Shown piece after piece: positions 52,646 to 56,500 of a stretch of DNA of 64,000 bases. The position numbers and the translations under genes were made by a program. Origin of the DNA: the human T2T-CHM13v2.0 reference genome, Homo sapiens; the NCBI RefSeq assembly GCF_009914755.1, contig NC_060935.1. One strand, given 5' to 3'. The notes under the pieces are model-generated. The model made no database searches and was not told the origin of the DNA. It worked only from the letters and a program-made list of their open reading frames with translations. Each line of letters starts with the position of its first letter. Position 1 is the first letter of the stretch.

Positions 52646-52870
52646 CCCCAGCAGGCCCTCCTGGTGCTGATGACATCAGTGTGAACCCCGTCACCAAGTT
52701 GATGGTCCCTGGCCCCAACTCCTTGATGCTTCCAGCCAGCGGCCACGCAGGCTCCATACCCCCTGGCTACTTCATCCACCCTGACACTGGGAGGGTGCTG
52801 CCCGAGGCTGGACACCTGGGATATGATCTGCTGAGAGCTACCCTGGTGCCCACTATGGACACCAATGCCG
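52646..52870 (+). pseudogene. Pseudo-exon 14
   Basis: ctgcag|PAGPPGADDISVNPVTKLMVPGPNSLMLPASGHAGSIPPGYFIHPDTGRVLPEAGHLGYDLLRATLVPTMDTNA-g|gtgagc. Confidence 0.9.
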
Positions 52871-53194
52871 GTGAGCCCCTGGCCCACTGACTATCCCCAA
52901 CTCAGCTCTGGGCTTCAGAGATGAGGCAGGGCTTGCTGGGACTCTCAGGAATGAGCTCCCAGGGAGCACAGCACAGGACGCAGGGCTCTCTCCTTGGACA
53001 GTGGGGCTTGGTGACCAGCAGAGTAGTAAATACTTCCTTCCCCTCCTCATCTTGACATTCTTGCTGGATCCAGAAGGTGCCATGAGCTGCATGGTAAAAG
53101 GAGGCAGGTCCCAAGGCCCCTCTGTCCTGCTCTGCAGGGCTGAAGGAGGCTGGTGCATTAAAGGGTACCAACAGCTCCCTGTATCCCTGTCCAG

Positions 53195-53529
53195 GTGGTG
53201 TCCGAACATCAGAAGCTGCCATCCTGCCCTATGTGCCCTACCCAACCAGTCCCACCACAGGTTCCCCTCCAGCCACGCACCTGCCCATCCTGCAGCCAAG
53301 AAGGACGTCCCCGCTGGGGGCTCTCATGACAGACCCCGTCACAGGCATCAGGGTGCCCGTGCTGGCTGTGAATCTGCACCCCCAAACAAGGCAGTGGCTC
53401 ACTCTTGGGAGGACATACTGCAATCCTCTCACCAAGACCTTGGCCCCTCTGGAGATGGGGGGCCCATGGAGGATCCAGTCACAGGAGGCATCTCGCCCAT
53501 CCTGGGAGTCGGGTTGGATGAAAACACAG
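53195..53529 (+). pseudogene. Pseudo-exon 15 (-1 frameshift ~53463)
   Basis: gtccag|GVRTSEAAILPYVPYPTSPTTG...MTDPVTGIRVPVLAVNLHPQTRQWLTLGRTYCNPLTKTLAPLEMGG[fs]MEDPVTGGISPILGVGLDENT-g|gtctcc. Confidence 0.88.
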
Positions 53530-53975
53530 GTCTCCCGGCAGCCCTCAGCATTGTCCTCCCTCGCCCTCCTCCATGCCTGGCCTGGCCTCCCAGTCCCCTT
53601 CCTCTCAGCCCCCTACACCCTCCATGTTCTGATCTGAGCCACAAACTCCACCCACGACCCTCTTTCCACCCTTCATCCTCTCAGCCTCTTACCCCCAACC
53701 TTCCCTCTCCCCTTCCCCATCTCTACTCCAGTGCCCCTGGGGAGGGGAAGAGAAGCAAGGTACTTCTATAAAGTTAATGGACACTTTTCAACCAAAAAGG
53801 ACCATTTCTCCACCTGCCACCACCATGCTCTACCCCCTGCCCCCTCCCTCTCCCCCTCCTCCTTCCCTCCCACAGCTCACTTCCACCCTTGTGCCCTAGT
53901 TCCCCTTATGCCACACCTGCCTACATCCCTGCTGGTTCCCTCTCCCACCTTGCCCCCTTGGTTTCTTTCTTCCAG

Positions 53976-54356
53976 CTCAGCTACTTGTACTGGGAGGGCT
54001 GCGAGATGCTTCGGGGAACCTCTTGCTGCCTGGTGACAGCTTTGTGGAGCCACTGAGCAGGAAGACAGTCCGGCTCCAGGGGGCTTCCTGACGAGAGGGC
54101 CAGACATTGCCCCATATGGGAGGGCCACAGGCCCTGCTGGACACCAATGTGCTAGTGGCCCAGAGGCAAGTGATTGCAGTGCTTCAGCCGTGCCAGGAGA
54201 GTCCAGAGTCGGGTGTACAGGAAACTCTGGAGGCTGCCATTAAGGACATGAGACAGCCACTGGCCTTGACTCTGCACCATGTCCTGCAGCAGGCTCAGAG
54301 GCTGGAGAGGCAGCTGGTGACAGCAGATGACATTGAAGCCAGTGGTGGCAGGATAG
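53976..54356 (+). pseudogene. Pseudo-exon 16 (in-frame TGA at 54089-54091)
   Basis: ttccag|QLLVLGGLRDASGNLLLPGDSFVEPLSRKTVRLQGAS*REGQTLPHMGGPQALLDTNVLVAQRQV...IEASGGRI-g|gtatgg. Confidence 0.9.
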
Positions 54357-55090
54357 GTATGGATGAATCTGGGCCAGAGGCTCTCAGGCCCCGATATCTC
54401 GGGCCCAGAATGACCTGGTGCTTTGATGCTCCTAGGCCCATAAGCTCAGGGACAGGGCTGCAGCCCTACTGGCCATGCACATGCGTGACCAAGGGAAGAG
54501 AGAAGGAACTCCATGACTTCATACCCCGACCCCATGAGTGCTTGACTGCCTCCCTGTCTTAATTTCTTGCCAATGCCATTGAGTTATGTTATGGAGCATA
54601 CATTCTCTTGTTACTTCATGGCTCATGAAACACCACCAACAGGTGCTATGATACCCATTTTAGAGTGGGAAACCTGACATTCAGAGAGTTAAATGAGTTG
54701 CCCAGCTGGGGTCCTCTAGCTGCAAAGCCTGAATCTCCTGAGTCCTCAATCCCTTCTCACCTTCATTCTGCAGCAGTCTTCCACTTCCCACGAATAAACG
54801 CAAGAAAGGAGTTCATCCCAAAACTCCACCTCCCACCGACAGCCCTGATACAAGGAAAGGCAAGGAGAAGTAGGAGTGGCATCTTCCTGGAGTTAATCTC
54901 ACTCATTCTAGAAATTACCCTCTTCCCACAAATAACAACAAAACAAAAAGAACCAGGTCAGAATTGACTTGAGTTTGAAGACCTGCCCCACAATTTATTA
55001 ACTCTTTGACCTTGGGCAAGTTATTAAAACTAACCCCTCCCTGCCACTGTTTTACCATCTTTTAAAAGGAAGAGTAAAATCGTGCATACT

Positions 55091-55384
55091 GGCCGGGCAC
55101 GGTGGCTCACGCCTGTAATCCCAGCACTTTGGGAGGTCGAGGCAGGTGGATTGCTTGAGGTCAGGAGTTCGAGACCAGCTTGATCAATATGGTGAAACCC
55201 CGTCTCTACTAAAAATACAAAAAATAGCCAGACATAGTGGTGGGAGCCTGTAATCTCAGCTACTTGGGAGGCTGAGGCAGGAGAATCGCTTGAATCCAGG
55301 AGGTGGAGGTTGCAATGAGCTGAGATCACATCATTGTACTCCAGTCTGGGTGACGGTGAGATTCCGTCTCAAAAAAAAAAAAAT
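55091..55384 (+). mobile_element. AluS (intronic)
   Basis: Full Alu; TSD GTGCATACT. Confidence 0.95.
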
Positions 55385-55752
55385 TGTGCATACTTTATAG
55401 CTTGGGTTGTAGGACTGAGTGAAATATAACTTCTACAGAGTCCTGAGTTCAGATTCTGAGGAATGGCAGGTGCTCAAGAACACAAGCCCCCTTCTTTTAG
55501 AAGTTGTTCTCAGCTTCTCAAAAGGTCTGATGCCACTCAATTCCCACTTGCTTCTTCCAAAACAGGCCATTAGGGCATTGTCCTTTCTTCCTTTCTGAAT
55601 TCAGAATGCTAAGTTGAGCCTAAAGAAAACAAATGTAGTGTTTGCAGGGAAGCCTCTCTGGTCAGGGACGTAGTACTTTGAACCTGGAAAGACTTCAGGG
55701 TGATGCTTAACCCGCAACTCCTCCTCTTCACTCCCTCTCCCCCTGGTGTTGG

Positions 55753-55923
55753 GAATGATGCGCTATCCTGGGACAGAGCTGTGGGCCCCAGCCCTGTATG
55801 GAATGGAGATCCCAGATCCTGAGGGCTCGGGGCTCATGGTGCCTATCCTGGGCATGGAGCATGATGAGAATTCTGGCGATGCCACACCGCTGGCAGGCTC
55901 AATGGAAGACGCTGATGGCAAAG
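55753..55923 (+). pseudogene. Pseudo-exon 17 (acceptor AG>GG at 55751-55752)
   Basis: Polypyrimidine tract then gttGG|MMRYPGTELWAPALYGMEIPDPEGSGLMVPILGMEHDENSGDATPLAGSMEDADGK-g|gtagga. Confidence 0.85.
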
Positions 55924-56342
55924 GTAGGAGAGAACTTTGGACCTCTGAGAGCTCAGGAATGTGACTTAGCTCTGGGAGAGAAAACCCCCTAAAGCTCAGG
56001 AGGGGTACCCATGTGCCAAGGGAAGGGGTCATTCTGGTCTTCTGCTAGGGCTGCTGAGACCCAAAATTAAAGGTGCCCAAAGATTCCAAAACCCCAGGAC
56101 CATAAATCATGTATGTCTCCCCTAGATTATTGGGTCCTTTCAAAGACCAGCACTTCAGAAACTCACCACCCACCCCCACGCCAGGGCTGTGGCCACCAGG
56201 AGCCCTATAATCCAGCTTAGAGCCCTTTGAAGGGCAAAAGGAGGTCAGGGGCTCTTCTGGCTTCCTTTTTGCCAGAAAAAGGACCTGCCTTCCTTCCCCA
56301 TCTCTGGTTTCTAAAGCCAGTGGTGGGCTTGGCATCCCACAG

Positions 56343-56500
56343 GTCTAATCCCAATCTCGATTGGGGCTCAAGCCATAGACCCCTGGACTAGGAAGCCTGG
56401 TCCTGTCATTGGAGCTCAAACGGATCTCTCTGCCAGAGTGGTGGTGCCCGTTGTCCAGGTGCTGGAGGCTTTACCTCGGGGAGTGAGAGACCCTGGTCTG
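56343..56500 (+). pseudogene. Pseudo-exon 18
   Basis: ccacag|LIPISIGAQAIDPWTRKPGPVIGAQTDLSARVVVPVVQVLEALPRGVRDPGL|gtatgt. Confidence 0.87.

Follow-up and report, generated by a model that had tools for sequence, protein, structure and literature searches.

The question raised by this human locus is how a region that RefSeq annotates only as the long non-coding RNAs (lncRNAs) LOC107984386 and LOC644277 comes to hold, in translation, an array of D/N/H-P-x-T-G turn motifs, and to which protein these motifs belong. The locus spans positions 52646-56500 of a 64,000-nt stretch (referred to below as the window) of contig NC_060935.1 in the T2T-CHM13v2.0 assembly of Homo sapiens and, judged from the DNA, is made up of pseudo-exons 14-18 of a human pseudogene, probably a unitary one. 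The reading that we consider probable as a whole combines this human remnant with a conserved strand-rich cytoplasmic repeat domain in the orthologues. All 13 motif strings listed in the initial annotation were found in plus-strand translations at the place given for them: VNPVTKLMV and IHPDTGRVL in pseudo-exon 14; SPTTGS, TDPVTGIRVPV, LHPQTRQWL and CNPLTKTLA in pseudo-exon 15, followed, past a 1-nt frameshift, by EDPVTGGISPI and LDENT plus a split codon; RDASGNLL and VEPLSRKTV in pseudo-exon 16; PDPEGSGLMVPI and HDENSGDA in pseudo-exon 17; and IDPWTRKPG in pseudo-exon 18. The two ends of the region also agree with splice sites (AG at 52644-45 and GT at 56501-02). In the 420 residues of the six in-frame translated pieces, the strict pattern [DNH]P.T[GKR] matched seven times, compared to a mean of 0.055 and a maximum of 3 in shuffled versions of the same residues, and the pattern occurred once in 50,006 amino acids of six-frame open reading frames (ORFs) from window positions 1-44000. 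Recurrence of the motif by chance is excluded. The shuffles preserved composition, and the failure of all 20,000 to reach seven matches also speaks against a rival reading in which the motifs are part of a Pro/Gly-rich low-complexity or disordered linker whose repeats reflect composition.

A tblastn search with an intact bat orthologue (P0023, 1,706 amino acids) identified 30 colinear high-scoring segment pairs (HSPs) on the plus strand, which cover its residues 14-1552 and define the whole decayed gene as far as it lies in the window (44190..63774, plus strand); the last ~150 residues of the orthologue map past the window end. The parts occur in the order signal peptide, Cys-rich ectodomain, transmembrane exon, coiled coils, repeat domain and a portion of the C-terminal region. 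The human copy is thus colinear with its orthologues, which include mouse Gm32742, rat RGD1562811 and fish si:dkey-103g5.4, but whereas these are open reading frames, the human copy has decayed through a frameshift, stop codons and the replacement of conserved Gly residues. Stops were detected within the HSPs 49525-49716, 53978-54361 and 60683-60808, and frame changes were also present in the exons at 45467-45642, 45841-46036 and 58806-58992. Several lncRNA exons (44265-44358, 44684-44775, 45469-45624, 46471-46576, 47378-47540 and 49540-49676) coincided with upstream pseudo-exons mapped by tblastn, and LOC107984386 and LOC644277 appear to be pseudogene transcripts that still use the old splice sites. 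Because ordered HSPs carry frame changes and stops, and because lncRNA exons lie on the pseudo-exons, the locus is assigned as a pseudogene, probably a unitary one; since the frame is broken in human, the motifs belong to no human protein.

The five pseudo-exons that encode the motifs, all on the plus strand, divide the repeat units of the orthologous domain (numbered as delimited below) among them. Pseudo-exon 14 (52646..52870) follows the AG at 52644-45, precedes a GT at 52871-72 and overlaps an HSP (52669-52872) with 81% identity to P0023; it encodes units 1-4 with the turns NPVTK, LPASG, HPDTG and D..G... Pseudo-exon 15 (53195..53529) encodes units 5-11, including the best-conserved 47-residue triplet DPVTG/HPQTR/NPLTK, and is covered by two HSPs in different frames (53194-53466 in frame 1 and 53433-53546 in frame 3); ahead of EDPVTGG, one nucleotide is missing from a G/C run near 53455-53462 and the frame changes. 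The split codon at the junction of exons 15 and 16 gives Ala in human versus a nearly invariant Gly in the family. Pseudo-exon 16 (53976..54366; HSP 53978-54361) encodes units 11-14 and then a helical-hairpin insert, and its ORF is broken, with a '*' in the tblastn subject, by an in-frame TGA (54089-54091) in place of the R or Q codon of orthologues. Pseudo-exon 17 (55752..55923; HSP 55749-55925, 85% identity) encodes units 15-18 with the turns YPGTE, DPEGSG, DENSG and DADGK. No AG acceptor lies directly upstream of it, none being present in 55698-55752 of the human sequence; the nearest preceding AG is at 55696-97 and is followed by an in-frame TGA, and the splice acceptor of this pseudo-exon may have been lost in human. 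Pseudo-exon 18 (56343..56500), flanked by AG at 56341-42 and GT at 56501-02 and matched by the HSP 56342-56503, encodes units 18-20 (DPWTR, DLSAR) and the start of a downstream helix. The intron between pseudo-exons 16 and 17 holds a masked Alu-like repeat with a poly-A tail and an alternative minus-strand BTG4 exon (55085-55392, 55395-55619).

We then examined the distribution of the family. Used as a query at E≤0.01, pseudo-exon 14 retrieved 56 mammalian proteins out of 280 candidates, with 71-97% identity; full-length mammalian members have 1,567-1,706 residues and carry the names 'predicted gene 32742' or RGD1562811. The monkey gene models retrieved were fragments (P0001, 445 amino acids; P0045, 246 amino acids). 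An exhaustive HMMER search of a representative library with pseudo-exon 15 yielded 85 proteins at E≤0.001, down to ~30% identity, two of which (P0119 and P0131) were unrelated repeat proteins and were dropped. Another search gave 168 fish and other matches, named si:dkey-103g5.4. No human protein was present among the 56, the 85 and the 120 listed of these 168 matches. A profile built from the most distant matches detected homologues in the brachiopod Lingula (4,184 amino acids), the annelid Owenia (4,208 amino acids), the molluscs Plakobranchus and Dreissena, a lungfish and frogs. One gar gene model is fused to LAYN, in keeping with the presence of LAYN near the window. No paper was found in a literature search for 'LOC644277' and 'dkey-103g5.4', and a search on the DPxTG motif returned nothing relevant; in the searched literature, Gm32742 and RGD1562811 were mentioned once each, in expression tables.

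The orthologues are predicted single-pass membrane proteins of ~1,600-1,700 residues. They begin with a signal-like N-terminus, and their Cys-rich part, which in P0023 has 30 Cys in 477 residues, comes before the sole strong hydrophobic stretch (P0023 473-500); six K/R residues occur within the 31 residues after this stretch, and the repeat region starts ~270 residues farther on. Given the positive-inside rule and its location after the transmembrane stretch, the repeat region is predicted to be cytoplasmic, in agreement with the side to which it had been assigned in the initial annotation. The same annotation had described an Eph-like ectodomain, a label that proved too broad: a Cys-rich Ephrin_rec_like module was detected and nothing else Eph-like. 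Matches to this Pfam family (PF07699) were weak, at 17.4-17.7 bits in mammals, under the Pfam cut-off of 23.1, and over it in two invertebrate homologues, that of Owenia (26.8) and P0263 (25.4), and a profile of the orthologue family matched the Cys-rich region of EphB2 in the PDB at E 6.6e-4. The ectodomain match is to a Cys-rich module, not to an Eph ectodomain. Within the decayed gene, a 151-nt direct repeat (43114-43264 and 44528-44678, 94% identity, spacing 1,414), both copies of which translate to a Cys-rich CPPGTFLSG...FCHLCP module, is a local duplication of an ephrin-receptor-like exon. Another part of the ectodomain (P0023 ~378-432, window 47376-47540), with the conserved pattern HYPEYD...GHFYNT...FDWG.FR.L.EE...PGVYVF.LSS..H, corresponds to no Pfam family and adds a further uncharacterised module to this protein. 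Past the window end in human, a conserved C-terminal region that has no Pfam family includes a second hydrophobic stretch (P0023 1564-1584), weaker than the transmembrane one (Kyte-Doolittle 2.16); a buried helix and a membrane-associated segment are both conceivable for it.

The repeat domain has ~400 residues and is composed of ~20 units of ~15 residues. Units were delimited on a 52-row family alignment and are numbered here on P0004, a 578-residue lynx fragment that spans the region; the 20 delimited units had a mean length of 15.5 residues, with the 28-residue unit 6 left out of the mean, and two intron-retaining translations (P0061 and P0049) were excluded from the repeat count. The consensus unit has the form D-P-x-T-G-x-x-V-P-I/V-L-G/A-V-x-L. 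Each unit opens with a [DNH]-P-x-[TS]-G turn; two short strands follow, the first built around a conserved Pro and separated from the other by a Gly or Ala break. Units group in threes to form a 47-residue super-repeat. Profile autocorrelation of the joined arrays on the same alignment showed peaks at lag 15 (z 6.5) and lag 47 (z 5.5), neither of which was present in the helical insert. This insert, a helical hairpin of ~75 residues that interrupts the arrays after the second one, was absent from the initial annotation, in which the region had been proposed to be a repetitive module. The repetitive nature of the region is evident from internal profile comparisons with hhalign: segment 206-327 matched 398-500 with a probability of 98.9% (score 95.6 over 69 columns), 206-252 matched 253-311 with 98.5% (66.9 over 41 columns) and 95-205 matched 206-327 with 94.4% (45.9 over 64 columns). 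Column-shuffle controls reached at most 12.2 for the second comparison and 20.7 for the third (n=25 each), and 39 of the 40 shuffles for the first scored ≤20.1. These controls, far under the observed scores, are a further argument against repeats that merely reflect composition.

An iterated hidden Markov model (HMM) of the 47-residue unit, whose consensus consists of three successive turn-strand units, found 1,095 copies; 172 of 264 proteins have five each, and the five of P0004 occupy 114-155, 206-251, 253-290, 424-464 and 468-496. As copy number and spacing are alike from Lingula to mammals, we regard the region as one fixed domain that contains pseudo-repeats, rather than as a variable array. 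Conservation of the turns in orthologues had been set beforehand as a refuting test, and the turns were found to be kept down to ~30% identity. With a strict pattern, [DNHE]P.[TS][GKRQ], applied to a 107-row alignment (20 mammals, 68 other vertebrates and 19 distant homologues), the turn of unit 3 was kept in 100% of mammals, 88% of other vertebrates and 94% of distant homologues; the corresponding values were 100%, 94% and 39% for unit 8, 95%, 97% and 72% for unit 13, and 89%, 87% and 29% for unit 19. The remaining units have degenerate turns, such as DPxGS, DxDGK and D..SG. Approximately 70 columns, mainly G, P, D, T and hydrophobic residues, were at least 90% conserved over the 107 sequences from invertebrates to mammals, a pattern that is also difficult to reconcile with a low-complexity linker. 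The human copy departs at four of the 68 such columns that it covers (T219N, G232R, V274L and G472R), and other mammals depart at 0-4. Mean-field direct coupling analysis of pooled repeats (608 copies, effective number of sequences 118) gave weak pairs of near-constant i+j around the turns (z 2-3); these are confounded by copy identity and were not used.

Several lines of evidence suggest that the arrays are built of strands. Pro and Gly account for 23-25% of the arrays compared to 8% of the insert and downstream helix, and the longest run free of both has a median length of 7-12 residues in the arrays compared to 40-41 in the helical parts; with such a high Pro and Gly content and such short runs, the arrays cannot be helical. 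An AlphaFold2 model of P0004, based on the 52-row alignment, had a mean predicted local distance difference test (pLDDT) score of 85.8 and a predicted template modelling (pTM) score of 0.78, and pLDDT was 90-97 in the majority of ten-residue array blocks. Secondary structure assigned with DSSP (Dictionary of Secondary Structure of Proteins) followed the order helix 44-65, 22 strands in 78-318, helices 322-346 and 350-394, 11 strands in 397-493 and helix 506-546, with 33 short strands in all; the first and last helices correspond to the helical flanks, described as coiled coils, that had been proposed on either side of the module. Fifteen of the 18 tabulated turns were 4-7-residue loops between two strands (for example, 203-205/206-211/212-214 and 465-467/468-473/474-482, given as strand/loop/strand). 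A second model, of P0093 (30% identical to P0004; 85-row alignment; pLDDT 89.3, pTM 0.86), had a like order of elements and a like layout of turns. The turns are thus predicted to form true hairpins, as had been suggested initially, and the two pTM values point to a compact rigid body. The helical matches of the first model span residues 44-382, which suggests a bundle formed by helix 44-65 and the inserted hairpin. Some features would be expected of a disordered linker, including the Pro and Gly content itself, units 5-6, which are mostly coil in the P0004 model, dips of pLDDT to 62-73 at 81-90 and 191-200, and a hydrophobic-moment test that is indecisive for arrays I and II. However, pLDDT was 90-98 over the arrays in two independent models and, with the shuffle controls and the conserved columns, this reading is largely refuted and very improbable.

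We next asked whether the domain belongs to a known family. With the seven human exon translations as queries, the Pfam copy used, whose newest models date from 2025, gave a single row, a chance match to Ribophorin_II (E 0.089). No Pfam family was found on the repeat region of three sets of 6, 26 and 8 homologues (E≤0.001 for the latter two), nor on that of four fragments at E≤10. MORN repeats gave no Pfam match at E≤10 (P0004 and P0034) or at E≤0.001 (the 26 and 8 homologues). RHS/YD repeats gave none at E≤10, and a lone Rhs chain (8qja_B) appeared in Foldseek at E 0.62 with a template modelling (TM) score of 0.06. PDB sequence profiles had no match on the arrays: a search with the 52-row alignment gave only the EphB2 Cys-rich region and a MacA coil, and a second search at E≤10 gave eight rows, all on the helical insert. 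The best of these rows matched the insert (P0004 322-394, window ~54100-54340) to armadillo repeats of ODAD2/ARMC4, with E 0.005 for the chain and 0.65 for the best stretch, and was taken as chance.

Plakin (plectin) repeats deserve separate mention, as they bind the cytoskeleton in the cytoplasm and have a D-P-x-T-G-like hairpin motif, so that the region might be a relative of them. A plakin repeat begins with a beta-hairpin, which is followed by two antiparallel helices, according to a published description (PMC4726743). The cytoplasmic setting and the hairpin at the start of the repeat are therefore shared, but the units identified here have ~15 residues and no helix, and DSSP shows only strands and loops in the arrays. 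Moreover, PF00681 had no match at E≤10 in P0004 or P0034, and no plakin, plectin or desmoplakin chain was found in PDB profiles (E≤10) or in the Foldseek rows shown. The chance that the region is plakin-related is close to negligible. The claim that no named family accounts for the module thus held in Pfam even at E≤10 and in the literature search; the repeat domain is undescribed in Pfam, the PDB and the searched literature.

A more serious alternative is that the arrays are a diverged form of a known beta-repeat fold, new in sequence only, either a propeller in which the 47-residue triplet is the blade or a solenoid of the cell-wall-binding or combined repetitive oligopeptide (CROP) type. 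Foldseek searches with both whole-fragment models, which are ordered and strand-rich, had no match at E≤0.001 among 350,542 PDB chains. The best weak rows for both models were Kelch and designed SAKe propellers, with a two-component sensor propeller also present; propeller rows had E 0.009-0.9, TM scores of 0.07-0.18 and root-mean-square deviations (rmsd) of 14-17 Å. CROPs of TcdA and TcsH and glucan-binding repeats of DSR-E came next (7u1z_A, 4nby_A, 8jhz_A, 4tvc_A and 4ttu_A; E 0.28-0.8, TM ≤0.09). The super-repeat is near the size of a propeller blade, the range of which includes ~47 residues, and Kelch proteins were the commonest of the weak rows (best E 0.009). However, TM scores to Kelch were 0.09-0.18 with rmsd of ~15-17 Å, each triplet has ~6 short strands compared to the four-stranded Kelch blade, and a helical hairpin lies inside the domain. 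The solenoids of TcdA, TcsH and glucansucrases resemble the domain in their short tandem hairpin-type repeats, and the three units per super-repeat recall the three hairpins per turn of CROP-type solenoids; their repeats, of ~20-30 residues, are longer than the units found here. In a structural study, the short repeats of CROPs form beta-solenoid units that pack into rods, in proteins that are bacterial and extracellular (PMC4885049), features that set them apart from the domain described here. Across both kinds of fold, TM scores were ≤0.18, rmsd was 14-29 Å over 250-560 columns and probabilities were ≤0.08; no Kelch, WD40, CW_binding or RHS match was found in Pfam at E≤10, and no such chain in PDB profile searches. 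The pTM values of 0.78-0.86 and the helical bundle inside the domain would also be unlike an extended rod. A diverged known fold is, in our view, unlikely.

We tentatively propose instead, at a chance somewhat short of even, that the arrays represent an undescribed beta-hairpin-repeat fold (15-residue turn-strand units, grouped by three in each 47-residue super-repeat) that wraps around the helical bundle inserted in it. The arrays would then found a new family of cytoplasmic domains, belonging to an orphan bilaterian membrane receptor that the human lineage would have lost. Several observations weigh against this proposal or the wider reading of which it is part. The weak Foldseek rows (E 0.009-0.9, TM ≤0.18, rmsd 14-29 Å) were repeat beta proteins, to one class of which the arrays may be distantly linked. 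Four whole-fragment runs of VIA-align returned lists filled by helical matches, none covering the strand arrays, with values of a size common for helical elements, and hence barely probed the arrays. The hydrophobic moment of arrays I and II did not favor strands (alpha 0.61-0.64 versus beta 0.54-0.60), whereas array III was strand-favoring (beta 0.76 versus alpha 0.66). Pairing of the strands and a 'solenoid' stacking of the units, with its handedness, are putative features. One of the 40 shuffles for 206-327 versus 398-500 reached 134.6 over 16 columns, at an end rich in gaps; we took this as an artefact. All orthologues are predicted gene models, the transcript evidence for which consists of two expression tables.

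The turn itself has a designed counterpart. The sequence N-P-A-T-G-K is the loop of a designed 12-residue beta-hairpin peptide (PDB 2EVQ), as described in two papers (PMC11013605, PMC9885153). The turn [DNH]-P-x-T-G-[KR/x] matches the designed loop and, in the models, sits between two strands. In contrast to 2EVQ, a single designed hairpin, it occurs ~16-20 times in a natural 400-residue domain. Short beta-hairpin repeat modules are already known as a kind; this natural domain family is undescribed.

With near-ideal turns and conserved Pro and Gly residues, the domain may form a rigid lattice of short hairpins. As a rule, lattices of this type offer binding surfaces. The flanking coiled coils could bring two chains together as a pair, and the domain might then act as a scaffold that couples the Cys-rich ectodomain, through these coiled coils, to a cytoplasmic partner. 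Such a role as a putative protein-binding scaffold between ectodomain and cytoplasmic partner is possible but doubtful.

The finding concerns the domain of the orthologues and touches neither on a human protein nor on any known open question. If the fold is new, it would add a short natural hairpin repeat, with a near-ideal turn sequence in its 15-residue unit, to the few known cytoplasmic beta-repeat modules. The decayed-gene reading accounts for the two lncRNAs annotated at the human locus and marks a gene that is present in the mouse, rat and zebrafish models and lost in humans. The domain also provides an entry point to a large and conserved membrane-protein family, wholly unstudied so far, that extends from lophotrochozoans to mammals.

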